This document shows positions 5,745 through 59,370 of a DNA stretch of 64,000 bases, one piece after another. Source of the stretch: Minisyncoccia bacterium (lineage in GTDB: Bacteria > Patescibacteriota > Minisyncoccia > Phycocordibacterales > UBA9973). The stretch is from contig JBAQFO010000012.1 in the NCBI GenBank assembly GCA_049287305.1, forward strand, positions 7,113 through 71,112. The letters run 5' to 3'. A program made the position numbers and the translations under genes. Below the pieces are notes generated by a model. It was not told the origin of the DNA. It was given only the letters and a program-made list of their open reading frames with translations, and made no database searches. Position 1 is the stretch's first letter; the number at the start of each line of letters is the position of its first letter.

Positions 5745-6749
5745 TTATTTTAATTGGTCTTTTTTATTGCTAATTTCCTCCTCAAACAAACTGGACAAAA
5801 CGTAATTCCAAAACCCCTTGCTTTCCTTGTTCTTTTCTCGGTATTCCTCCTGCTGGTCTTCAATAAACAAATCTTTTATGGCGTCCTGTCCCATATCATC
5901 TTCGGTAGCATATCCTGATTTAACCTTAAAATCTTCCCATGCTTTTTTAAAATCCTTTTCGTCAAAAGCAGCAGCTGTTTCTTTTTTAGCGTTGATAAAT
6001 CCAACCTTCGGTTCTTCTTCGGGGGCGCTTTCAGAAAGTAGTTCTCTAGCCAGGGACTCTCTCATGTCTTCGTTGCCCCTTACACTATAAAAAAGAGATT
6101 CCCCGATGGTATTTTGATGAGTGTTTAACTGCTCTACCGCTTCCGTCAAAGAAACTTCAGAAGCCTTTAATCCCTCTAGTCTGTCTGAGTAATCTCCATC
6201 AATCCAGTTTATTGCTGCCATAAACCTTCCATGTTGACCCTTCGCCAACTTCTTTAGAGCTTTTTTCTTCTCTTTCGGGTCTTCTATTTCAAGCACCTTT
6301 AAATATTCTTCCGGAGAGATGTCGTTGTCCTTGCAGAACTTTTCCACCTTCTCGTTGGTTTTCTTATACTCTCCGTTTCTGTAACTGTCTAATGCTTCTA
6401 TTGGTTCTGCAATCGCGGCAAACCTTGCCTCGTCGGTGATGCACATTTCTTTCAGCTGGCTTCGGACCACGGCGATGGCTTTCTTTGGACCAATAAGATT
6501 TATTAGCTTTGCAAAACTGGGATGATTGCGTGCAATTGCAACTACGCTGTCTTCTGTCAGCATAGCTTCTATTTTTGCTGATTGGGTTAGTTTTTCTGAA
6601 AATTTTAGTCTTACTTCTTCAAGTGCTTCTATGTCGTCTTCCTCCAGTTTTCCCGAAGCAAGTCTTTTAACTAATTCTTCGTGTCCGTCTTGCTCGAGCA
6701 TTTTTCCAAAAAGATGGCTGTCTTTTTTGTCTTTCAGCACTTCCGCCAA
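5745..6749 (-). CDS. Hypothetical acidic coiled-coil protein
   Basis: 334 aa, Glu/Lys-rich, AT-rich host-like codon usage. No recognisable domain. Confidence 0.55.
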   Translation of the reverse strand: MAEVLKDKKDSHLFGKMLEQDGHEELVKRLASGKLEEDDIEALEEVRLKFSEKLTQSAKIEAMLTEDSVVAIARNHPSFAKLINLIGPKKAIAVVRSQLKEMCITDEARFAAIAEPIEALDSYRNGEYKKTNEKVEKFCKDNDISPEEYLKVLEIEDPKEKKKALKKLAKGQHGRFMAAINWIDGDYSDRLEGLKASEVSLTEAVEQLNTHQNTIGESLFYSVRGNEDMRESLARELLSESAPEEEPKVGFINAKKETAAAFDEKDFKKAWEDFKVKSGYATEDDMGQDAIKDLFIEDQQEEYREKNKESKGFWNYVLSSLFEEEISNKKDQLK

Positions 6750-7795: not shown

Positions 7796-9376
7796 TCACT
7801 TCTTGAAACGCGCCTTTGCTTCGGAGCGCGCGTCCTCGAACACCTGCGAGAAGAATTGACGTGACGACGGTGAAACCGTCACGTGGAACGTTCTGCTCCC
7901 CGTCACCTCCTCTATGAAGCTTAGGTATCCATAGTGCTCGAGGTCTTCCAGGATGAATGTCAGGCACCTCCGCTCTCCTTTCGGGAGGTAGAGATATGAA
8001 ACATCGAAGACTTGGCCACTCGTGTGCGTAGGAAATGCCGTCCGAGCGTTGACGATTTTTCCCTTCTTGAGTAGCTCCTGATACTCAAGGTGTCTGACGA
8101 GAGAAGTCACGTCCAACGGCACGAACTCCTCTTTCGGGTAGAGCTTCACGTGCAGGCGGCGGGTTTCAAACGCCACGGTCAGCAGCGCTCCATGGGCAGC
8201 CGGAGAGTTCTGGAGGTAAAGTTCTTGATTCTCCAGGTCCTTTTCGGCGATTGGCCCATTTCCCGAAGTCCGAAGCTTGAAGCCGAAGTAATCCGGCTCT
8301 TCGAACAAGGGCTCAAGCCCTTTTCCGCCACCGTCGCGCGGGTTTAGGTCACGAAGGTTTTTGTAAATCAAGTCCTTCTTGGTGAGCCAGAACCACATGC
8401 GGCTGGGAACCTCGCCCTTTACGTTGACGTTTTCCCTGTATCTCCGGGCCAGCTTTTTGAATTTAGCTGGTTCGGTCTGGTAAAGGTCGAAGAGCTCTGC
8501 GGCTGCGACGACGCGGAACCAATAAGTCGGAGACCAATCCCTTCCCATGTGATAGCGAATCTTGTGATAGATTTTGCTATTAAATGAGGGGTGGTTGAGG
8601 AAGAAAAGCCTCGGCATTGTAACTGGTTCGCCGAAGGCCTTCTTGCCAAGAGAGACCATCTCTTTGACGCACCCTCTTCCACAGTGGAAAGCAAACACCG
8701 CCAGGTCTTCCCCGCCGAGGTCCGCCTCCAACCGTTTCAGGTAATGCGCCGCCGCGAAGATCGACTTCTTGGCGTTGAGCCTGTCGTCTTTCACCACGAC
8801 GGTGTAAGAGACAGTTCTCCACCCGGTTGCCACCTTGCGCCGCTTCTTTCCCTTCCCTTTGTATTTCCATCCTTTGGGAACTTTTTTCTTGCGAACCTCC
8901 TTATTTACCAATCCCGCATCCACCCCTGTGCCTTCGGTGAACTGCATGACTCCGCGAGGACCGGTCGGGCTTTTCGCCCTTGGGTCTCCGCAGCTTTCAA
9001 TCCAAGCCATACCTTGCAGCATGGTCTGGGAGAAACCGCTCTCACGAGCAGCTTCTCTGAAAATCGGCTGAAGAGCATTAATACGTTCGGCGCATTGCAC
9101 AGCGACCGGGCTGCGCAATATTCCAAACTTCTGCTCTTCTACCACCCTCTCTGTTCGCTCAGAGAGAGCGGTTTCCGACATGTTTTCCCGTCCTACGCCA
9201 ACCGAAAGCTGGTGTTTGGGGACGAAAAACGACGGTTTTGTAAGCGCGTTTGTCGTTGCCGTGCCCAGCGTCCGCTGGAACATGACGAAAAGAGTGATGA
9301 GGCCGGTTACGAGAAGAACCTCGCACACTGCCAACACCACCCACCACATACGAGGAACCTCTCTGCAGCTTTTCAT
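7796..9376 (-). CDS. Membrane-anchored lytic transglycosylase (SLT domain) protein, GC-rich gene
   Basis: N-terminal TM segment, then SLT catalytic signature GMAWIESCGDPRAKSPTGPRGVMQFT. GC content is visibly higher than the flanking genes, and the gene has its own terminator. Confidence 0.8.
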   Translation of the reverse strand: MKSCREVPRMWWVVLAVCEVLLVTGLITLFVMFQRTLGTATTNALTKPSFFVPKHQLSVGVGRENMSETALSERTERVVEEQKFGILRSPVAVQCAERINALQPIFREAARESGFSQTMLQGMAWIESCGDPRAKSPTGPRGVMQFTEGTGVDAGLVNKEVRKKKVPKGWKYKGKGKKRRKVATGWRTVSYTVVVKDDRLNAKKSIFAAAHYLKRLEADLGGEDLAVFAFHCGRGCVKEMVSLGKKAFGEPVTMPRLFFLNHPSFNSKIYHKIRYHMGRDWSPTYWFRVVAAAELFDLYQTEPAKFKKLARRYRENVNVKGEVPSRMWFWLTKKDLIYKNLRDLNPRDGGGKGLEPLFEEPDYFGFKLRTSGNGPIAEKDLENQELYLQNSPAAHGALLTVAFETRRLHVKLYPKEEFVPLDVTSLVRHLEYQELLKKGKIVNARTAFPTHTSGQVFDVSYLYLPKGERRCLTFILEDLEHYGYLSFIEEVTGSRTFHVTVSPSSRQFFSQVFEDARSEAKARFKK

Positions 9377-12313: not shown

Positions 12314-12384
12314 CGGGCCGTAGTATACCGGTAGTACAAGTGCTTTGGGAGCATTTAGACTGGGTTCAATTCCCAGCGGCCCGA
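12314..12384 (+). tRNA. tRNA-Pro (anticodon TGG)
   Basis: Cloverleaf by hand: acceptor cgggccg/cggcccg, anticodon loop tttggga, T-arm ctggg-ttcaatt-cccag. No encoded CCA. Confidence 0.8.
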
Positions 12385-12388
12385 CATT

Positions 12389-12459
12389 GCGGGATTAGTT
12401 TAATGGTAAAATAACAGTTTTCCAAACTGTGGTTGGGAGTTCGATTCTCCCATCCCGCA
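12389..12459 (+). tRNA. tRNA-Gly (anticodon TCC)
   Basis: Acceptor gcgggat/atcccgc, anticodon stem acagt/actgt with loop tttccaa, T-arm gggag-ttcgatt-ctccc. Sits 4 nt after tRNA-Pro. Confidence 0.85.
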
Positions 12460-12473
12460 CAGAGTAAGGGACA

Positions 12474-14626: not shown

Positions 14627-14698
14627 GCACCCGTAGTGAAATGGATATCACAACAGTCTTCGGAACTGTCGTTGGGGGTTCGAATCCCTCCGGGTGCA
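14627..14698 (+). tRNA. tRNA-Arg (anticodon TCG)
   Basis: Acceptor gcacccg/cgggtgc, anticodon stem acagt/actgt with loop cttcgga, T-loop ttcgaat. Confidence 0.8.
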
Positions 14699-14708
14699 CA
14701 AAAGTAAA

Positions 14709-22723: not shown

Positions 22724-23497
22724 ATGAAAATCGGGATTTTTGATTCGGGCTTAGGCGGACTTATTGTGGCGAAAGCCATCCGAAAATCTCTGCCGAAATA
22801 CGACTATGTATACTTAGGAGATACCAAGCGGGTGCCCTATGGCAATCGTTCACACGACACCGTGCTTCAATTTACCAGGGAATGTGTGAATTACCTATTT
22901 GAAAAAGAGGCTTGCGGAATTGTCATCCTGGCCTGCAATACGGCCTCGGCTCGAGCCTTAAGGGAACTACAAAAAGAGTTCAAAAACAGAAAAATTTTGG
23001 GAGTTTTAATTCCGGCGGCAGAAAAAGCGGCGCAATTCAATAACATCGGAATTTTGGCTACAGCAGGCACAGTTGCCTCCGGTTCTTTTCCGCGAGAAAT
23101 AAAAAAATTGAACAAGAAAGCAAAAGTTATTCAAGTTGCCGCGCCAATGCTAGTGCCGCTGGCGGAAGCGGGGGAGAGCAAAAATGCAGTTCCTTTTTTA
23201 AAGAAGTATTTAGCTCCGTTTAAAAATAAAAAATTTGAAACACTAGTGCTGGGCTGCACTCACTATCCTTTGTATAAAAAAGAAATCAAAAAACTTTTAC
23301 CCAGGGTAAAAATAATTTCTCAGGATGAAATAGTTCCGGTAAAGTTAAAAAATTATTTGGCTAGGCACGAAGAGATATCAAAAAAGCTCTCCACGAACAA
23401 AACAGCAAAAATTCTAGTCACGGACGAAACCCAAACGGTAGATGTCCTTGCTCGCAAATGGTTTAGGGGTGTGAAAACACGCTTAATTAAGTTGTAA
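22724..23497 (+). CDS. murI: Glutamate racemase
   Basis: IGIFDSGLGGL, ACNTASA and GCTHYP motifs. Confidence 0.9.
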   Translation: MKIGIFDSGLGGLIVAKAIRKSLPKYDYVYLGDTKRVPYGNRSHDTVLQFTRECVNYLFEKEACGIVILACNTASARALRELQKEFKNRKILGVLIPAAEKAAQFNNIGILATAGTVASGSFPREIKKLNKKAKVIQVAAPMLVPLAEAGESKNAVPFLKKYLAPFKNKKFETLVLGCTHYPLYKKEIKKLLPRVKIISQDEIVPVKLKNYLARHEEISKKLSTNKTAKILVTDETQTVDVLARKWFRGVKTRLIKL

Positions 23498-23653
23498 ATT
23501 GTCATTCTTGACTTGTTTTTATTAAAATGTTTATAATAGAAACATGGAAAGGAAGGCGCAAAATATGTATATGGCCAACACAAACCCAATAGTTCGGGGT
23601 TGGTTATTGCGTTGCATTTCTTAACTATCTTTAAAAAAATGAAACTCAAAAAA

Positions 23654-23680
23654 ACAGCCCTGAACAGGGCTGTTTTTCGT
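23654..23680 (+). terminator. Intrinsic terminator at the left border of a GC-rich island
   Basis: acagccct-gaac-agggctgt followed by TTTTT. Confidence 0.6.
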
Positions 23681-23729
23681 TCATTGACAACTGAAGAGAG
23701 AGTCTACCCCAAAAAGAAAGGACCTTACC

Positions 23730-24173
23730 ATGAGCAAAATTACCCTTCTGGAGAAGAAGGAAATTATTGCAGTCACGCCGCATGTTCGCTTCGTGGCTTC
23801 CGATTTCTTTCGTGGTTGGCAAGTTGGTTTGAATTTTGAGAATCTGTTCCTTGGTGTTGTTGAAGAAACAGGTGGACAGTCAGTCGAGATTGAATTGCAC
23901 GACCTTTCCGAGTGGTTGGTAAACGGTCCAATCATTGAGGAGTTGGGTGGGGCGTCAAAGACGGGTATCTCTCTGGCGACCTTCGCCGCAATCGCTGCGA
24001 CCGGATGCTCCTTCGTTGCCCACGTTCTTGACGAGGACAGCAAACCCTGGGCAGTTTTCTATCGCCAAGAAGGGGCGCAGCATGTCGCCGGAGCGGATTC
24101 CACCGACTACAAATATTGGTGGTATGGCGGCGGGCGGTTTGCTTCTCCGCATCTCACCCCGTGTATTCTCTGA
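23730..24173 (+). CDS. Hypothetical protein (GC-rich island gene 1)
   Basis: 147-aa ORF with a GC-rich codon profile and an upstream AAGAAAGGA ribosome-binding site. Confidence 0.5.
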   Translation: MSKITLLEKKEIIAVTPHVRFVASDFFRGWQVGLNFENLFLGVVEETGGQSVEIELHDLSEWLVNGPIIEELGGASKTGISLATFAAIAATGCSFVAHVLDEDSKPWAVFYRQEGAQHVAGADSTDYKYWWYGGGRFASPHLTPCIL

Positions 24174-24287
24174 CAATTGGTTTACTAAATAGAAACACAT
24201 GCGTGTAGTTTGTGTGTTCACCTGACTGAGTGTGGGTTTCCTGCACTTTCCATTAACTCCGGTAACGCCAAAAAAGGAGGTGAAAAC

Positions 24288-24497
24288 ATGAACCGCAACA
24301 ACGAAGAGACGTTCGAACTGGAGTGCCGACATCTCGTCCAATTGCTCCGGCAAGAAGAGGGGTTGTCTCTGCAAGATCTGCAGGATCAGGACAACCCTGT
24401 CGCGCTCGAGCTGGTGGAAGACTTCTGTGAAGAGGCTGGAATCTCTCGAGAGTGGTTCGAGGGGTTCGTGGGTCGGATGATTCTAGCGCTCAATTGA
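24288..24497 (+). CDS. Small acidic protein (GC-rich island gene 2), paralog of gene 3
   Basis: Start at the internal ATG, 5 nt after AAGGAGGTG. Product MNRNNEETFELECRHLVQLLRQ...DNPVALELVEDFCEEAGISREWFEGFV. Confidence 0.5.
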   Translation: MNRNNEETFELECRHLVQLLRQEEGLSLQDLQDQDNPVALELVEDFCEEAGISREWFEGFVGRMILALN

Positions 24498-24698
24498 GCG
24501 TACGGGAGAAGCACCGCTTCCGCCGACAACAATCGCACGCCCGCAGACGCGTAGTTTGCTGGGCATTGCAATTGGATATTGGTTTAACCAATATCTTCCA
24601 TCAACCTGGGTTCTGGCTCAGTTCAAACTGAGCTGCAGTGCGAGTCGCTCTAACAAAGCGACTCGCACTGCCCCAAAACTGCGTGAAAGGAGAAGCAG

Positions 24699-25106
24699 AT
24701 GCACAGCAATTCCACCCTCAACATCCTCAACGAGGAAGCCGCCGAGCGAGAGCTCCGAGGGCGACGGACCAGCAAGCAGTGCGAGTCGCTTGAGTGGCAA
24801 TGCCGGCTACTCGCCAACGTGCTCGCCGCCTGCTGCCTGACCATCAGCGAACTCGAGGATGACCCGACCTCAACCGACCGTGTCGCAGAAATTTTCTGCC
24901 ACGACACTGGTCTCGAGCGGGGAGACTTCGATCGTCTCGTTCAGGACGTGCGCGCCACGCTTGCCTCGGCGAGCCGGAAGCTGAGAGATACGTCTCTCAG
25001 GTTCCGCGGGAGTGGAGGTCGGCACCGAAACCTCGACGAGGTTGAGCGTCAGCCCGACCCCCTGGGACGTACTCGGGCTCAGTATGGCTGGTGGCCGAAA
25101 GACTGA
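24699..25106 (+). CDS. Hypothetical protein (GC-rich island gene 3), paralog of gene 2
   Basis: AAAGGAGAAG ribosome-binding site. The segment ...LEWQCRLLANVL...DDPTSTDRVAEIFCHDTGLERGDFDRLV aligns with gene 2. Confidence 0.5.
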   Translation: MHSNSTLNILNEEAAERELRGRRTSKQCESLEWQCRLLANVLAACCLTISELEDDPTSTDRVAEIFCHDTGLERGDFDRLVQDVRATLASASRKLRDTSLRFRGSGGRHRNLDEVERQPDPLGRTRAQYGWWPKD

Positions 25107-25181
25107 GCTGCAGCACGGGTCGTTGGATGACCAGCGATCCGTGCTGCCCCACTACCACTTCAAATGTAAGGGGCACAAGAC

Positions 25182-25448
25182 ATGACACGCAAAGTAGAAA
25201 ACGACAGCGATGCAGAAAGTCTCCACAAGAGGCTCCAGCAGATCAATGGGGTGCGTAAGCAGCACGGAGAAAACGACAAAACCATCGCTGCGCTGACAGA
25301 ATCTCTCTCGCATGACGGTTTCTCGGACGAGGGAGAAGCTTGGAATACACTGGTAGAGTACTATCAAACTCACCGTCGCGTTGAAAAGATTTACGTGGCA
25401 GATCGACCTCTGTTTCCAGACGGCAGAAAGTCGTGGTATCCGCTGTAG
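25182..25448 (+). CDS. Hypothetical protein (GC-rich island gene 4)
   Basis: 88-aa ORF with an upstream AAGGGG ribosome-binding site. Confidence 0.45.
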   Translation: MTRKVENDSDAESLHKRLQQINGVRKQHGENDKTIAALTESLSHDGFSDEGEAWNTLVEYYQTHRRVEKIYVADRPLFPDGRKSWYPL

Positions 25449-25470
25449 AACTACTCAACAATCATCGAAA

Positions 25471-25519
25471 TGACCGTGCGCAAGGTGTACACACCTACGC
25501 ACGGTCATTCTCTTTTTTG
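25471..25519. terminator. Intrinsic terminator at the right border of the GC-rich island (possibly bidirectional with xth)
   Basis: 10-bp stem tgaccgtgcg/cgcacggtca followed by TTCTCTTTTTTG. Confidence 0.65.
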
Positions 25520-25524
25520 TGAAA

Positions 25525-26313
25525 CTATATCTCTATTGAAACAGGACAGTGGTCGGAACCCATGACTTCGGGCAGAATTTTTGCAGACTTAATTTTTTTT
25601 GCGAGTTTTCCGGAAACAAAAATATAATCAATTCTCCAGCCTACGTTTCGCACGCGAGCATTGGCGAAATGGCTCCACCAGGAATAATGTCCGTTGCCTT
25701 CTGTGAAAATCCGGAAAGTGTCTACAAATCCTGCTTCTATTATTTTATCTATTCCTTCACGCTCTTCGTCGGTGAAGCCTTTGTTGCCGATATTTTCCTT
25801 AGGACGCGCCAAGTCGTCCTCTGTGTGTGCCACATTCAAATCCCCACAGAAAATTACGGGCTTTTTTTTCTCCAAACTAGTAACAAATTCCAAGAATGCC
25901 GGGTCCCATTGTTTGTGCCGGAGCGGGATGCGGGAGAGGTCGTCTTTGGCGTTCGGGGTGTAGACAGTGACCACATAAAAATCTTTAAATTCTGCCGCGA
26001 TTACTCGCCCTTCGGTGTTTGGGTCGCCGTAAGAATCTTCCAACTTGTATTTTTTTTCAATATTTTCGGGAAAGCCTAAAATTACGGATAAAGGCTTTGT
26101 TTTTGTGAATATAGCAGTGCCGCTGTAGCCTTTTCGGGTCGCCGAATTCCAGAACTCTTCGTATTCAGGCAAATCCACAACACTCTGATGTTGTTCAGCT
26201 TTCGTTTCCTGCAGGCACAAAATATCAGGGTTGTGTTTTTTAATGAAGGGCACAAAAAATCCCTTCTTGTGCACCGCCCGTATTCCGTTTACATTCCAGG
26301 AAATTATTTTCAT
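25525..26313 (-). CDS. xth: Exodeoxyribonuclease III (AP endonuclease)
   Basis: MKIISWNVNGIRA...CLQETK plus the C-terminal SDHCPV motif. Confidence 0.9.
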   Translation of the reverse strand: MKIISWNVNGIRAVHKKGFFVPFIKKHNPDILCLQETKAEQHQSVVDLPEYEEFWNSATRKGYSGTAIFTKTKPLSVILGFPENIEKKYKLEDSYGDPNTEGRVIAAEFKDFYVVTVYTPNAKDDLSRIPLRHKQWDPAFLEFVTSLEKKKPVIFCGDLNVAHTEDDLARPKENIGNKGFTDEEREGIDKIIEAGFVDTFRIFTEGNGHYSWWSHFANARVRNVGWRIDYIFVSGKLAKKIKSAKILPEVMGSDHCPVSIEI

Positions 26314-27233: not shown

Positions 27234-28142
27234 TTAAGGTTTGTTGTGAAATTTTTTATGAATGTCCCGTAGGTGCTTATCGGTGACGTGAGTATAAATT
27301 TGCGTGGTGCCAATATTGGCATGTCCAAGTATTGCTTGGACCGAACGCAGGTCAGCGCCGTTGCCGAGCAGGTCGGTGGCAAACATGTGTCTCATGACGT
27401 GCGGAGTAACCTTTTTGGAAATGCCTGCTTTGATTGCATGTTGTTTTACTATACGTTCAACCGATCTTTTGGTCAGAGGACTTGCTTCTCCTTTTTCTTT
27501 ACCCATTTGCACAAAGAGCGCCTCGCTCATATCTTTGCGAGCTCCAAGATATTTTTTTACAGCATCTTTCGCGTCTTCCGATATAAAAACTACCCGCACT
27601 TTTCCTCCCTTCCCGCGTATAGACAGCTCATCTGAATGTAGGTCTATATCCGAGGTTAGGGAACACAATTCGGAGACACGGAGACCAGTAGAAAACAAAA
27701 GTTCAAGAATTGCTTTGTCCCGCAGGTCTTTTAAGTCAGACCCGCTTGGAGACTTTAAAAGTCGGGACAACTCTAAATGAGTAATTAAATCCAGAGACCT
27801 TTCTCCCACTTTAGCGAGCTCTATTCTATCAGGAGACATGGAGCTTATATTTTCTCGCGCCAAGTATTTTAAAAATGCCCTAATAGCGATAAGGTAGTAA
27901 TTTTGAGTTTTTTTAGAAAGCGTATCTCCGGTAGCTTTGTTGTTGCCAGTTGACTGTCGGTTGAGCCATAGGCGGAATTCTCGAACTACGGTGTCGTTTA
28001 TTTTACCGGGGTCATCTAATTTTATATATTGTAGAAATACAGAAAGGTAGTGGTCATAATTTTCTACAGTCTTCAGGGCTCGTCCTTTTTCTATTTCTGT
28101 ATATTCCAAAAATTGGGTTTTTAGTTGCTTTAAGGATGCCAT
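27234..28142 (-). CDS. xerD: Tyrosine site-specific recombinase XerC/XerD
   Basis: Catalytic-domain signature RHMFATDLLGNGADLRSVQAILGHANIGTTQIYTHV. Confidence 0.85.
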   Translation of the reverse strand: MASLKQLKTQFLEYTEIEKGRALKTVENYDHYLSVFLQYIKLDDPGKINDTVVREFRLWLNRQSTGNNKATGDTLSKKTQNYYLIAIRAFLKYLARENISSMSPDRIELAKVGERSLDLITHLELSRLLKSPSGSDLKDLRDKAILELLFSTGLRVSELCSLTSDIDLHSDELSIRGKGGKVRVVFISEDAKDAVKKYLGARKDMSEALFVQMGKEKGEASPLTKRSVERIVKQHAIKAGISKKVTPHVMRHMFATDLLGNGADLRSVQAILGHANIGTTQIYTHVTDKHLRDIHKKFHNKP

Positions 28143-58246: not shown

Positions 58247-58470
58247 AAGGATATTAAAGTTATCCACAGCAAAAAACTCGCAATTGCCTTTGCGGGTTTT
58301 TTGTGGTATACTACTAAAGACTATCATAGTTCGCGTTCGCTGTTCCTTGATTTGACTTCTGTCGCATAGTTTTTTGTGCGATGACTATTTACGTGTCGGC
58401 ATAGCTCTCTGTTCGCAAATTCACCTAACTACCCACTTCTTCGAAAGAGTGGTTTGAGGAGGAGGCTGTC

Positions 58471-59229
58471 ATGCGTCGCTTCGTTTTGCTGTTTGTGTTG
58501 TTCTCACTGCTGTCCTCCTCGGTGGAGGCAGCGAGCCGTCGACGGGCCGTGCGGTTTCCGTCTCCGGAACCTGTTGTTCCTCCAGCTCCTGCAGTCACCA
58601 CTGTTCTCACTGTGATCTACGAAGATCCGGATGGGAACGGAGTGACTAATGCATGGGTTGGAGCGCAGACACTTGGTCCGGCTCATAAAGGGGCCAAGTT
58701 TGTCCGGTCGGTCAAGAAACCGGGGGACAACGCGTTCTCTCTGCTCGGCAACACGGTCGTGGAGGCACACCAGGACGGGATGTATCGGACGTTCTGGCTC
58801 TTCTATGGCGAGGAGTTTTACGATCAACTGCCGGATGGCACCAAGCTGCCGTGGCGGCCTGGTATCGCCATCTACAAGGTGGAAGAGACTTCGCCGGAAG
58901 GATTGGTCACGGAGTCCTACACTCAGGTGCAGGTGCCGCTTCGTGCGGAACCGGTTGCCGGGTTTGGGCCGCTTCTCAAAGCTGTTCCCACAGCTGACGG
59001 AAAGCGCATCACTCTGTATGGAGTATTTGCCACCCCGCCAGTGGCCATGCTCTATCACAGAGAGGGTCCGGGGCTCTACCGGAGCCAGGAGGTGAAGGTC
59101 ATCAACAACGAGGTTCAGGTTCCGGAAGGGATGGCGGGGCAGGATTCCCCTCTGGTCGTGTGTGCGGGTTATTCCGCGGCGGATTGCAACACCGTCGAAG
59201 TGGACATCCCGAACCCTCCGAAGTTCTAA
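58471..59229 (+). CDS. Secreted protein encoded in a GC-rich insert
   Basis: GAGGAGGAGG ribosome-binding site, signal peptide MRRFVLLFVLFSLLSSSVEA. Very GC-rich by eye. Confidence 0.6.
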   Translation: MRRFVLLFVLFSLLSSSVEAASRRRAVRFPSPEPVVPPAPAVTTVLTVIYEDPDGNGVTNAWVGAQTLGPAHKGAKFVRSVKKPGDNAFSLLGNTVVEAHQDGMYRTFWLFYGEEFYDQLPDGTKLPWRPGIAIYKVEETSPEGLVTESYTQVQVPLRAEPVAGFGPLLKAVPTADGKRITLYGVFATPPVAMLYHREGPGLYRSQEVKVINNEVQVPEGMAGQDSPLVVCAGYSAADCNTVEVDIPNPPKF

Positions 59230-59322
59230 CGCACAACAATCACAACTTCACTCTGGTTGTTTTCTTGCTGGAGTGACAAGAAGTCAAACAATCATCAACC
59301 GAGTCGCAAGGCTCAATCCCCA

Positions 59323-59370
59323 GTCCTCCTGTCTCGCTTCGGCGCAGACAGGAGGACATAAGGTTTTTTA
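59323..59370 (+). terminator. Intrinsic terminator after the GC-rich secreted-protein gene
   Basis: 12-bp stem gtcctcctgtct/agacaggaggac followed by GGTTTTTT. Confidence 0.65.

Follow-up and report, generated by a model that had tools for sequence, protein, structure and literature searches.

Between murI and xth in an ultra-small CPR bacterium lies a GC-rich operon of four small genes, with hairpin modules set between the genes. The hairpins form a real family that is new, narrowly distributed and not described before, and we can only infer the function of the locus that they punctuate. The features are collected in Table 1, and the window is the whole 64-kb stretch of DNA that was analysed.

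Table 1. Features of the small-gene locus, with positions counted from the first letter of the window.
Feature	Position	Strand	Description
Sigma-70-like promoter	23508..23537	+	TTGACT-18-TATAAT, right after the murI stop; 11/12 consensus match
26-codon ORF (MERKAQNMYMANTNPIVRGWLLRCIS) or structured leader/small RNA	23544..23624	+	stretch between the promoter and the first terminator
Intrinsic terminator, possible attenuator	23650..23680	+	upstream of gene 1; 13-bp perfect stem, T-run
Gene 1	23730..24173	+	147 aa; constant first gene; dN/dS 0.18
Module B	24222..24287	+	CTGAG + hairpin 24230-24236/24240-24246 + leader TTTCCATTAACTCCGGTAACGCC-AAAAAAGGAGGTGA; holds the gene 2 RBS
Gene 2	24288..24497	+	69 aa; truncated gene-3-family paralog, N-terminal helical core only
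P0 hairpin	24575..24595	+	GATATTGGTT/AACCAATATC; in the gene 2-gene 3 spacer
Module A copy 1, short form	24615..24675	+	P1 24615-24622/24627-24634; P2 24635-24649/24657-24671; tail CCCA; 81 bits
Gene 3	24699..25106	+	135 aa; full-length family member; helical core, basic C-terminal tail
Exact 16-nt copy of the copy 1 P2 5' arm	24776..24791	+	in gene 3, at the junction of the N-terminal extension and the family core
Module A copy 2, long form	25076..25151	+	P1 25076-25083/25102-25109; P2 25110-25126/25131-25147; tail CCCA; 83.6 bits
Gene 4	25182..25448	+	88 aa; optional cassette; 55% identical to its L012 homolog; dN/dS 0.18
Terminal intrinsic terminator	25469..25519	+	12-bp outer stem, T-run, fold z = -7.3; convergent with xth

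An earlier note had described the region as an island of deviant composition, and on this the calculations of GC, GC3 and tetranucleotide usage all agree. Windowed GC is 0.49-0.63 in 23,700-25,350 against about 0.34-0.44 in the flanks, and GC3 is 0.55, 0.66, 0.72 and 0.55 for genes 1 to 4 against 0.43 +/- 0.07 for the host ORFs (n=46). By tetranucleotide distance, 23,701-25,500 ranks first among the 208 windows of the 64 kb (z = 4.3). There is a second compositionally deviant islet in the window at 58,330-59,370. The four same-strand genes are bracketed by two intrinsic terminators as the note had said, with no terminator-like plus-strand site between them, and all four ORFs are real genes by their dN/dS of 0.15-0.28 against orthologs. 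A strong ribosome-binding site had been claimed for each gene. We scored RBS strength as the number of nucleotides matched to AAGGAGGTGA, taking host starts from the longest ORFs, and found 5, 10, 6 and 4 nt upstream of genes 1 to 4, and 3 nt or fewer in 35 of the 46 host ORFs. By these match lengths only genes 2 and 3 have strong sites; gene 1 is moderate and gene 4 is weak.

The order murI, gene 1, a variable set of genes and xth is common to at least 5 related Minisyncoccia/Yanofskybacteria-like genomes. Along with the slot, its leader and terminal terminator are shared by at least 5 related CPR genomes, and the divergence of the proteins resembles that of the flanks. These comparisons show what is evidently one lineage-specific operon, which a small clade of Minisyncoccia/Yanofskybacteria-like CPR bacteria has in the fixed slot between murI and xth. 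Since related genomes share the slot and the proteins diverge as the flanks do, the whole island is not a recent acquisition. The proposal of a horizontally acquired cassette array therefore has to be divided: the foreign-looking composition, the variable content and the likely exchange of parts stand, and recent horizontal insertion of the island as a whole does not.

Several signals at the ends of the locus are conserved with the slot. The -35 element and the spacing of the promoter are kept in L004, L006 and L008. The stretch between the promoter and the first terminator is more conserved than the neighbouring coding DNA; its 26-codon ORF has identical length and stop position in three distinct sequences, and RNAalifold gives it a long stem with 2 compensatory pairs. 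It has no Rfam match. We also considered a dif site in this conserved leader and rejected it, as by eye it has about 10/16 positions of the XerD-side consensus. The first terminator is conserved, with one compensatory pair. The terminal terminator is preceded by (G/A)ACTACTCA and is the conserved end of the locus in L004, L008, L011 and L012.

Gene 1 has orthologs with 76% and 59% identity, always directly after murI, and gene content after it differs among the orthologous loci. Gene 4 occurs in L012 and is missing from L011, L004 and L008, and we found no relatives of it beyond the L012 homolog. What follows gene 1 is shown by these comparisons to be dominated by tandem, partly decayed paralogs of a helical, basic-tailed protein family that is tiny and confined to CPR. 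Genes 2 and 3 had been called paralogs, and this was borne out through an intermediate homolog rather than by direct BLASTP, where the match falls short of significance (E = 1.5). Gene 2 shares 53% identity with the N-terminal residues 1-65 of L004_112, a protein of 112 aa (E = 9e-19), and L004_112 is in turn 54% identical to gene 3 (E = 4e-35). The family profile recovers gene 2 at E = 2.5e-19, and so by homology gene 2 is a truncated paralog of the gene 3 family. The profile also matched a protein of 1068 aa, which we rejected because it is an EF-hand repeat protein and the similarity is probably generic to helix-loop-helix folds.

The larger of the two related module types, module A, consists of an 8-bp helix (P1) that directly abuts a second helix of 15-17 bp with a GCAG/CTGC base (P2), followed by CCCCA. 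The two long hairpins with shared flanks and different stems that had been noticed are both present. Copy 1 has a 15-bp perfect stem at 24,635-24,671 (fold z = -5.4) and copy 2 has 17 pairs at 25,110-25,147, two of them G.U (fold z = -4.7). Both have ACTGAGCT on the 5' side of the stem and CCCCA on the 3' side, and the exact 12-mer ACTGAGCTGCAG occurs at only these two sites in the 64 kb. The compensatory covariation that had been suspected holds up among eight distinct copies: they are 96% paired, 7 pairs have compensatory changes, none of 500 shuffles reaches the observed values and slid controls give 0-2 compensatory pairs, with the caveat that these statistics are inflated by shared ancestry because the copies are only eight and come from closely related loci. 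All eight copies agree in the P1/P2 junction, the T at -1, the GCAG/CTGC base and the CCCCA tail, and the interior of the P2 stem turns over with compensation while the flanks and base stay. In L011 the gene-3 ortholog has no P2 and its P1 complementarity is gone too, so the two helices go together and P1 constrains synonymous sites. We conclude from this pattern of change that the structure of module A is, by all appearances, under selection.

The position of the module differs from what had been proposed. The large hairpin had been described as a pre-gene element, and it is better seen as the 3' end of gene-3-type genes, where it overlaps the stop codon. The P1 of copy 2 encloses the last codons of gene 3, with the stop TGA at 25104-25106; this TGA sits within ACTGAGC, and the 5' half of P1 encodes R-A-Q-Y/F. 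Copy 1 does lie upstream of gene 3 as had been reported, and it carries the decayed remnant of a paralog C-terminus; the CATCAACCTGGGTTCTGGCTCAG upstream of it is what a deletion has left of the ...ERQPDPLGRTRAQ... end of the coding sequence in a gene-3-type gene. Every copy of module A is either between same-strand cistrons or ahead of the terminal terminator, and the genes that it follows are all of the gene-3 type or remnants of such genes; none is found after gene 1, gene 4 or L008 o197. Where a gene follows, the distance to its RBS is 14-35 nt. No gene follows the copy in L008, and merely a 2-codon ORF follows in L004, L007 and L017. The hairpins are not intrinsic terminators: CCCCA and an A/C-rich stretch follow the stem with no T-run and a terminator scan is silent, unlike the canonical T-run terminators at both ends of the locus.

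Two smaller elements are found near the modules of type A. The earlier note had listed a third pre-gene element at 24,222-24,246. It is real and recurs in every orthologous locus, and it belongs to a different, smaller module which the module A covariance model does not detect. This module B is ACTGAG, a 7-bp hairpin and a conserved A-rich leader with a strong Shine-Dalgarno site. It stands ahead of the second gene in every orthologous locus and, in L008, ahead of three unrelated genes. Its hairpin shows 97.6% pairing, one compensatory pair and 4 G.U pairs. The P0 hairpin is kept in L011 and L012 with one compensatory pair. We also looked at whether the 3' arm of hairpin copy 1 might have a functional alternative partner in the 16-nt arm copy at 24,776-24,791, and set this aside because neither L011 nor L012 keeps the exact copy.

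Module A is restricted to this locus and clade in everything that we scanned. A search with its covariance model picks up no more than the two copies in the window; in 19 other loci, every hit falls inside the locus. Exact-pattern scans of genome, metagenome and viral collections place it in this clade only, with one true locus among 185,579 species genomes, and the only true matches from the genome and metagenome pattern scans are L013, L016 and L017. Matches in Acidobacteriaceae, Spirochaetaceae, human-gut and three Ga01050xx/Ga0335396 contigs are chance pattern matches with no P2 hairpin. Within the clade, the locus has a mixed ancestry. The left part of the island is nearest to L004 and the right part is nearest to L011 and L012. 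The pS is 0.45-0.48 for gene 1 (against L004) and gene 3 (against L011 and L012), and 0.62-0.89 for the flanking genes. This mosaic similarity and heterogeneous synonymous divergence suggest that parts have been exchanged between lineages. There is a half-deleted module A after the 117-aa gene of L008, and deletion junctions are located at GACTGA/ACTACTCA.

Searches against known families returned very little. Nothing was found for the proteins of genes 1-4 in Pfam, PHROGs, NCBIfam or PADLOC, where the sole PADLOC match was of an L008 protein to DpdC (E = 0.028). The AF2 model of gene 1 was unusable (pLDDT 36), and Foldseek with the gene 3 model gave no significant match in PDB or BFVD. Rfam 15 had no plus-strand match in 23,300-25,700 even at E <= 1; in the whole window only four tRNAs reach the gathering score. 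A phage or plasmid affiliation had been raised and found no backing in blastn and tblastn searches of phage and plasmid collections, in IMG/VR pattern and protein scans or in the BFVD fold search.

We also compared the locus with known classes of elements. It is not an integron cassette array, since attC core sites, extrahelical bases and IntI are all missing. The modules have ACTGAGCT and CCCCA as flanks, GCAG/CTGC at the base, and stems that are perfect or wobble-paired with no bulges; RYYYAAC/GTTRRRY is absent. The integron rule of one site per cassette is not followed either, given the genes that have no module A. A tyrosine recombinase at 27,234-28,142 on the minus strand adjoins rpsO in all loci, 1.7 kb from the small-gene locus. 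Models of XerD, XerC and archaeal-type XerA give it 235-243 bits, and the integron-integrase model, with a cutoff of 265, gives it 123 bits. We rejected REP/BIME or MITE repeats on copy number, given the two copies in the 64 kb and the purely in-locus copies elsewhere. Gene 3 is bracketed by two like-oriented hairpins; for an IS200/IS605-type element or PATE, none of the four proteins had a Pfam, NCBIfam or PHROG match, TnpA (HUH) and TnpB included, and the covariance model found no further copies. CRISPR, retron and type III toxin-antitoxin have the wrong repeat geometry or lack their partner genes here. A diversity-generating retroelement was rejected as there is no reverse transcriptase, and the C-terminus beside the hairpin is conserved rather than variable. 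The class that the modules do resemble is that of protective intercistronic hairpins, judging by the missing U-tract, the same-strand cistrons and the covarying conservation.

The reading we prefer, and hold tentatively at somewhat short of an even chance, is that the modules are intercistronic RNA structures that would cap and insulate cistrons and double as homology blocks for cassette turnover. The modules would act within a polycistronic RNA. P1 would be a 3' protective cap for the upstream cistron, and P2 or the module B hairpin would be a 5' cap for the downstream one. Once an endonuclease has cut the RNA at the P1|P2 junction or close to it, each small gene could have a stability and output of its own, and the unstructured A/C-rich spacer with a strong RBS would drive independent translation. 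Being repeated and homologous, the modules could also be the sequences through which the intervening genes are duplicated, deleted, fused and exchanged, which would account for both the varying content and the mosaic ancestry. We infer the operon status, the cleavage and the RNA ends from sequence. Perfect stems of 15-17 bp exceed what a simple exonuclease block needs, which counts against RNA punctuation, and this model leaves unexplained the elevated GC3 and the strong Shine-Dalgarno sites in a genome that rarely uses them. The earlier suggestion of a structured RNA or operator keeps its structure, with covariation, and the choice between the two is favoured toward RNA only weakly. On the plus strand, G.U outnumbers A.C by 7 to 3 over both hairpin types, which is not significant; two A.C mismatches in L012 e1 would be G.U on the minus strand, and two L012 loops are palindromic to their centre, which is more typical of symmetry at the DNA level. 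The wobble statistics thus lean only weakly toward plus-strand RNA.

If the modules act as DNA, they could be recombination sites that fold as single strands or cruciforms in the manner of attC, at which an unlinked or nearby Xer-type recombinase swaps cassettes. We think this is unlikely. Content that varies at a fixed slot, a switch in mosaic ancestry beside hairpin copy 1 and synonymous divergence that is heterogeneous and in places low would all fit, as would flanks and a stem base conserved around a variable interior, wobble counts that significantly favour neither strand, a tyrosine recombinase gene 1.7 kb off in every locus, and contigs of two independent Logan runs that break inside hairpin copy 1. 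However, the stems are perfect and have neither attC core sites nor extrahelical bases, the recombinase is of Xer type in a conserved housekeeping position beside rpsO, and module A does not come after gene 4 or after every L008 gene. The deletion junctions resemble microhomology rather than precise site-specific events, the RBS leaders and the overlap with the stop codon fit expression signals, and no module copy was found outside the locus in the loci and collections scanned. We give only a slim chance to the bolder version, an unrecognised CPR cassette system analogous to integrons that works through folded-DNA hairpins without IntI or attC. Small genes could then be captured, duplicated, fused and exchanged between related episymbiont lineages at the fixed slot, with either the nearby Xer-type enzyme or one encoded elsewhere as a possible recombinase. 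It is also rather improbable that the modules are functionless relics of tandem duplication of the gene-3 unit, in which intrastrand template-switch correction and gene conversion among the copies maintain the palindromes. Copy 1 does rest on a decayed paralog C-terminus, the L012 copies resemble each other more than orthologous copies elsewhere, the 16-nt arm copy in gene 3 is present only in the window genome and suggests recent conversion, and all of the sequences are closely related. Against this, the elements have been retained in lineages where the flanking genes have reached synonymous saturation (pS 0.7-0.8), and every one of the 8 copies keeps the junction, the -1 T, GCAG/CTGC and CCCCA even as compensated changes replace the stem interior. 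Long perfect palindromes are as a rule unstable, and one would not expect them to survive without selection.

The palindromes might instead be double-stranded DNA operators, bound by dimers of the gene 3 family as possibly HTH-like regulators that autoregulate the downstream genes. The basic C-terminal tail of the gene 3 protein, the co-occurrence of palindromes with gene-3-type genes and the invariant outer half-sites GCAG/CTGC are in line with this. We find it quite unlikely, as the fold matches are weak (Foldseek E-values >1), the arms far exceed known half-sites in length and compensatory change in the interior is unexpected where a protein contacts DNA. The conserved flanks are also asymmetric (ACTGAGCT vs CCCCA), no promoter-like site overlaps the palindromes, and distant members of the family in other CPR genomes lack palindromes of this kind. 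The RNA reading also has a variant, a very unlikely one, that takes P2 with the 3' C-CCA as a tRNA-acceptor-like minihelix that RNase P cuts at the invariant T|G junction. Bacterial RNase P acting on minihelix substrates uses a U at -1, a G1-C pair and C-CCA as determinants, and 8/8 copies have the U at -1, G1-C at the stem base and a single-stranded C-CCA after the stem. With a cut at the junction, the upstream product would end flush in the P1 hairpin and the downstream one would begin with the P2 hairpin, much as tRNAs punctuate mitochondrial transcripts. The stems, however, are 15-17 bp rather than 12 bp and lack a loop resembling the T-loop, in RNAalifold the CCC tail is instead paired to a GGG upstream, and the tRNA genes in the window do not encode CCA, so its recognition may not matter for the RNase P of this organism. 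The last possibility is an assembly chimera, with DNA of a GC-richer organism joined into a CPR contig. The composition does shift sharply at both borders, and short-read contigs do break at hairpin copy 1. The junctions of murI with gene 1 and of the last gene, the terminator and xth are nevertheless found in independent assemblies (NCBI MAGs, ENA, JGI, Logan) from different samples and different assemblers, and the broken Logan contigs end and start in complementary arms of one hairpin. With orthologous loci having the same junctions, we regard a chimera as effectively refuted and its probability as close to nil.

CPR bacteria, or Patescibacteria, have tiny genomes and almost no experimentally characterised regulatory-RNA or mobile-DNA biology. 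Here an uncultivated lineage has a compact, conserved two-helix motif with real covariation, tied to a small-protein family found only in CPR. If the modules act as RNA, they would be operon punctuation that tunes single small genes in a genome where Shine-Dalgarno sites are otherwise rare. If they act as DNA, they would be an integron-like means of shuffling accessory genes in episymbionts. Either way, the slot is shared vertically while its contents are foreign in composition and mosaic in ancestry.

Integron arrays share with the locus small same-strand genes that are mostly without function by annotation, atypical composition and content that varies between strains, and attC sites, hairpin-forming elements that accompany each gene, likewise conserve structure and flanks while the stem sequence varies. 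The locus differs from integrons, including integrase-less attC clusters, in having no R''/R' core sites, extrahelical bases, IntI or attI. Some of its genes also have no 3' hairpin, its elements carry translation signals, and its position is fixed and vertically shared. REP/BIME, Correia, BOX/RUP and MITE elements are, like the modules, GC-rich extragenic palindromes with a conserved 5' motif, and they are often intercistronic and can stabilise mRNA; the modules, confined to one locus in each genome scanned, are not dispersed and have no RAYT or transposase nearby. Phage morons and genomic islets have the deviant composition, a promoter-like site and terminators of their own, the strong RBS and the setting amid housekeeping genes that we see here, and this locus differs in being outside a prophage and in a slot conserved across related genomes. 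In the early genes of phage T7, RNase III processing sites between cistrons leave hairpin-capped products. These are also conserved hairpins that separate the cistrons of one long transcript, although they have internal loops and another architecture, and the locus has no phage affiliation. Protective 3' and 5' hairpins are known to reshape operon stoichiometry, some of them lying in coding ends and being conserved (PMC5927463), and documented cases include the malE-malF REP, the papBA 5' hairpin and the consecutive hairpins after menB and menC (Dar & Sorek 2018, PMC5927463). Module A is set apart from these by two helices that abut without a spacer, by unusually long and perfect stems, and by being a sequence family known from sequence and confined to one locus in one CPR clade. 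Protective hairpins can cap a 3' or 5' end after endonuclease cleavage (PMC5927463), which for the modules is a predicted role. Like the modules, they are stable, have no U-tracts, lie between or overlap the ends of same-strand cistrons, and are evolutionarily conserved with constrained wobble positions (PMC5927463).

The window matches contig JBAQNI010000003.1 of GCA_049303715.1, a MAG of a Minisyncoccia bacterium (CPR/Patescibacteria). Its region between the murI-type and xth-type genes differs strongly in composition from its surroundings, as the earlier note had judged by eye. GC content is 0.49-0.63 across 23,700-25,350 and about 0.34-0.44 in either flank, and in a tetranucleotide check 23,701-25,500 ranked first for deviance (z = 4.3) among 208 windows, each 1.8 kb long. 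GC3 of genes 1-4 was 0.55, 0.66, 0.72 and 0.55, compared with 0.43 +/- 0.07 for 46 host ORFs. We recovered the four ORFs at the sizes given in the note, together with both bounding intrinsic terminators; the four genes are a single same-strand unit between these terminators. We consider them to be genuine genes because their differences from orthologs in other samples fall mostly at third positions, with a dN/dS of 0.15-0.28. The note had also given every gene a strong ribosome-binding site. This holds for genes 2 and 3, which match AAGGAGGTGA over 10 and 6 nt, but gene 1 has a moderate match (5 nt) and gene 4 a weak one (4 nt); with host start codons being approximate, 35 of the 46 host ORFs match by 3 nt or less.

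Features of the window, and content of the orthologous loci downstream of gene 1 (L handles denote comparison loci)
Feature or locus	Window position	Description	Basis
Glutamate-racemase-type gene (murI)	22,724-23,497	left neighbour of island	Pfam Asp_Glu_race
Leader region	23508-23680	promoter-like site, small ORF, terminator	
Gene 1	23,730-24,173 (+)	147 aa	
Module B	24,222-24,287	small hairpin and leader	
Gene 2	24,288-24,497 (+)	69 aa	
Module A, copy 1	24,615-24,675	upstream of gene 3	
Gene 3	24,699-25,106 (+)	135 aa	
Module A, copy 2	25,076-25,151	at end of gene 3	
Gene 4	25,182-25,448 (+)	88 aa	
Exonuclease III-type gene (xth)	25,525-26,313	right neighbour, convergent	Pfam Exo_endo_phos
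Second GC-rich islet	58330-59370	GC 0.59, GC3 0.66	
Third compositional outlier	7796-9376 (-)	GC3 0.65; 526-aa protein	lytic transglycosylase (SLT) domain
L004/L006/L007/L017		after gene 1: one 112-aa gene-3-type gene	
L005		after gene 1: 112-aa gene-3-type gene fused to methyltransferase fragment	
L008		after gene 1: 197-aa gene, 117-aa gene-3-type gene, 114-aa gene	
L011		after gene 1: 68-aa gene and gene 3	
L012		after gene 1: 67-aa gene, gene 3 and gene 4	

Orthologous loci with the order murI, gene 1 and, further on, xth rule out an assembly chimera. Orthologs of gene 1 (76% and 59% identity) occur in several assemblies, from groundwater and elsewhere, and in Candidatus Yanofskybacteria GW2011_GWA1_48, always directly after murI and ahead of xth, a xerC-like gene, rpsO, NYN and pnp. 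The flanking proteins are 74% (murI), 79-86% (xth) and 69-77% (xerC-like) identical, and gene 1 has diverged to a similar degree. Given this conserved position and flank-like divergence, we believe that the slot, its leader and the terminal terminator are old in the clade, and therefore that the island is neither a recent insertion nor a chimera. A phage or plasmid origin found no backing either, as there was no affiliation in the phage, plasmid and viral collections. In L005, the Candidatus Yanofskybacteria locus, the gene-3-type gene (6044-6499) is joined past residue ~71 to a C-terminal N6/N4 DNA methyltransferase fragment.

None of the four proteins had a match in Pfam, PHROGs, NCBIfam or PADLOC. 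The gene 1 structure model was unusable. The AlphaFold model of gene 3 has a confident helical core (residues ~31-100, pLDDT ~89) and a disordered basic tail, and Foldseek returned no significant fold match for it. The gene-3 family is tiny, with 12 matches at E <= 1e-3 in a profile search of 1.84 billion representatives. In other CPR genomes its distant members stand as single genes (contigs L027-L029, 6001-6357; L026, 383-739; L030, 276-1040). One lies directly after nusA in at least 24 contigs, another directly 3' of a tRNA gene, and a third in another GC-rich two-gene islet of an AT-rich contig; the hairpin modules were absent at all of the distant members examined. The proposed paralogy of genes 2 and 3 is sound, although it runs through an intermediate and not through direct BLASTP, which gave no significant match between the two. 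Gene 2 matches residues 1-65 of the 112-aa L004 protein (53% identity, E = 9e-19), this protein matches gene 3 (54% identity, E = 4e-35), and the gene-3-family profile retrieves gene 2 at E = 2.5e-19. The intermediate and the profile match show gene 2 to be a truncated paralog that has retained the helical core alone.

Both long hairpins of the earlier note exist, with a 15-bp perfect stem (fold z = -5.4) and a 17-bp stem with two G.U pairs (z = -4.7), and within the 64 kb the shared 12-mer ACTGAGCTGCAG is limited to these two sites. The form described for them, ACTGAGCTGCAG followed by a hairpin and CTGCCCC, is there, but the alignment of all copies places it in a larger two-helix element, module A. 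P1 is an 8-bp helix (GGCTCAGT/ACTGAGCT); P2 abuts it with zero spacer, is 15-17 bp long with an invariant GCAG/CTGC base, and is followed by CCCCA. There are eight distinct copies: two each in the window and L012 and one each in L004, L017, L008 and L011. Pairing is kept in 96% of their cells, and at seven pairs both sides have changed, bearing out the suggested compensatory covariation; 0 of 500 shuffles attained the observed values, and sliding the partner columns abolished the signal. Pairing in these intercistronic hairpins is under selection; they have no U-tracts and occur nowhere but in the murI-xth locus. A covariance model found no further copies in the window or 19 other loci, and when the species-genome, metagenome and viral collections were scanned with strict patterns, true copies turned up in this clade alone. 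On three unrelated metagenome contigs (L018, L021 and L022, e.g. L021 975-1051) the flanks GGCTCAGG...CTGAGCTGCAG...CTGCCCC occur without a long hairpin and score 18-21 bits against the module A model; this resemblance is probably due to chance.

The note had read the hairpin as a pre-gene element. Instead, module A is part of the 3' end of gene-3-type genes. In its long form (window copy 2, L004 and L017) ACTGAGC contains the TGA stop, R-A-Q-Y/F is encoded by the 5' strand of P1, and the P1 loop codes for the final protein residues. In the window, L011 and L012 the short form lies 5' of gene 3, and in L008 it lies 3' of the last gene. Before it stands CATCAACC(T)GGGTTC, which aligns, with internal deletions, to the end of the coding sequence of an intact paralog (...ERQPDPLGRTRAQ...); the short form is therefore the relic of a decayed upstream paralog. 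In L008 and in L004/L007/L017 no functional gene lies downstream of the module. Gene 3 of L011 has no module A of its own, with the P1 complementarity gone too, and the 117-aa gene of L008 has a half-deleted copy 3' of it. Module A is also missing from L005, a rearranged version of the locus.

The third, "related" element of the note (24,222-24,246) is real, but it is a separate second module, B. It consists of (A/T)CTGAG, a 7-bp hairpin of the GTGCAGG/CCTGCAC type and a conserved leader, TTTCCAYTAAYTCCGGTAACGCY-AAAAAGAAAGGAGGTGA; strong ribosome-binding leaders are built into the modules. In every orthologous locus module B stands ahead of the second gene, and in L008 it stands ahead of three unrelated genes. 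Paired positions make up 97.6% of the hairpin, which has one compensatory and four G.U pairs and is too small for significance. To judge from its sequence, it looks like a miniature module A, having ACTGAG and the TGCAG...CTGCA stem base in common with it.

Hairpin copy 1 has some peculiarities. Logan contigs from two runs (L002, L003, L032 and L033; SRR28062879 and SRR28062869) break within it in both runs, at window 24622-24666, and one contig pair ends and starts precisely at the arm/loop boundary, 24650. This could come from coverage or sequencing trouble at the hairpin or from population variation there. In this genome alone, an exact 16-nt copy of its P2 5' arm lies within gene 3 (24776-24791), and the 3' arm (24656-24671) could pair with its own 5' arm or with this copy. 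The corresponding codons of L011 and L012 are merely arm-like (GCAGCGTGA...GAGTCGTT) and 6 nt longer. Since the copy sits at the junction of the N-terminal extension of gene 3, where short family members start, it suggests a past fusion across a module or a recent gene conversion.

By nucleotide identity, the island is a mosaic. The L004 lineage is the closest for the leader, gene 1, module B and gene 2 (0.70-0.85), L011/L012 are the closest for hairpin copy 1 and gene 3 (0.80-0.85), and the housekeeping flanks reach just 0.70-0.76. The flanks are synonymously saturated (pS 0.62-0.89). Inside the island pS is low for gene 1 against L004 (0.475) and for gene 3 against L011/L012 (0.45), and high for gene 1 against L011 (0.68) and gene 4 against L012 (0.675). 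This heterogeneity suggests that parts of the array were exchanged among related lineages after their split, although constraint on synonymous sites may account in part for the low values. The description in the earlier note stands overall, and its "horizontally acquired cassette array" is half correct: the array varies in content, is a mosaic and has a foreign composition, but the locus is ancient and is no integron.

The leader region has a strong promoter-like site, a conserved 26-codon ORF (MERKAQNMYMANTNPIVRGWLLRCIS) starting ~7 nt past the -10 box, and an intrinsic terminator. Its conservation against L004, L006 and L008 exceeds that of the adjacent genes, its fold is a long stem in which two pairs are compensatory, and it has no Rfam match. 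It may encode a leaderless small protein, yield a small RNA, or work as an attenuator of the operon in the manner of a leader peptide or a riboswitch. The second islet has its own extended -10 promoter (TGgTATACT), a 130-nt leader, the ribosome-binding sequence GAGGAGGAGG and its own terminator (59323-59357); its product, 252 aa long, carries a signal peptide at the N-terminus and has no Pfam match. Its pre-terminator AACAATCATC...CGCAAGG is similar to the end of the main island (25458-25490). The tRNA genes at 12314-12460 and 14627-14699 do not encode the 3' CCA, tRNA-Pro and tRNA-Gly are 3 nt apart, and upstream, at L001 11-1564, the same contig carries a gene for a CCA-adding enzyme.

The function of the modules and of the locus we can only infer. 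Our tentative preference, held with less than even confidence, is that the modules work within the polycistronic RNA. The upstream cistron would be capped at its 3' end by P1 and the downstream cistron at its 5' end by P2 or the B hairpin, and an A/C-rich spacer with a Shine-Dalgarno sequence would allow independent translation. The zero-nt junction of P1 and P2 and the invariant T/GCAG...CTGC/CCCA would fit a defined cleavage site, and the repeated modules could serve as homology blocks by which the intervening genes were duplicated, decayed, fused and exchanged. Cleavage at this junction by an RNase P-type recognition of a minihelix is possible but weak, as the tRNA genes here have no encoded CCA.

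The wobble count is just 7 G.U to 3 A.C, and for this reason we weigh three readings besides the RNA caps. One module copy has minus-strand-type mismatches and palindromic loops. That the hairpins are DNA recombination sites seems unlikely to us; if cassette exchange at them on the DNA level were demonstrated, the locus would be considerably more interesting. Slightly less probable still, and about equal to each other, are that the palindromes are DNA operators for the HTH-like proteins and that they are functionless relics kept palindromic through correction.

Among known elements, we rejected a terminator identity for the hairpins, as no U-tract follows the stems, and a dispersed REP/MITE family, as module A copies are confined to one locus. 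The modules had no match in Rfam. An integron array is alike in outline only, with none of the attC/IntI features tested here found. We regard the modules and the small proteins as a real, previously undescribed and narrowly distributed structured-element family and small-protein family in a variable, positionally fixed CPR operon. It is documented that protective structures at 3' and 5' ends reshape the stoichiometry of operons, some of these structures being conserved and embedded in coding ends (PMC5927463), and the proposed RNA caps match their logic. Such protective or processing operon hairpins are the closest to how the modules would work.
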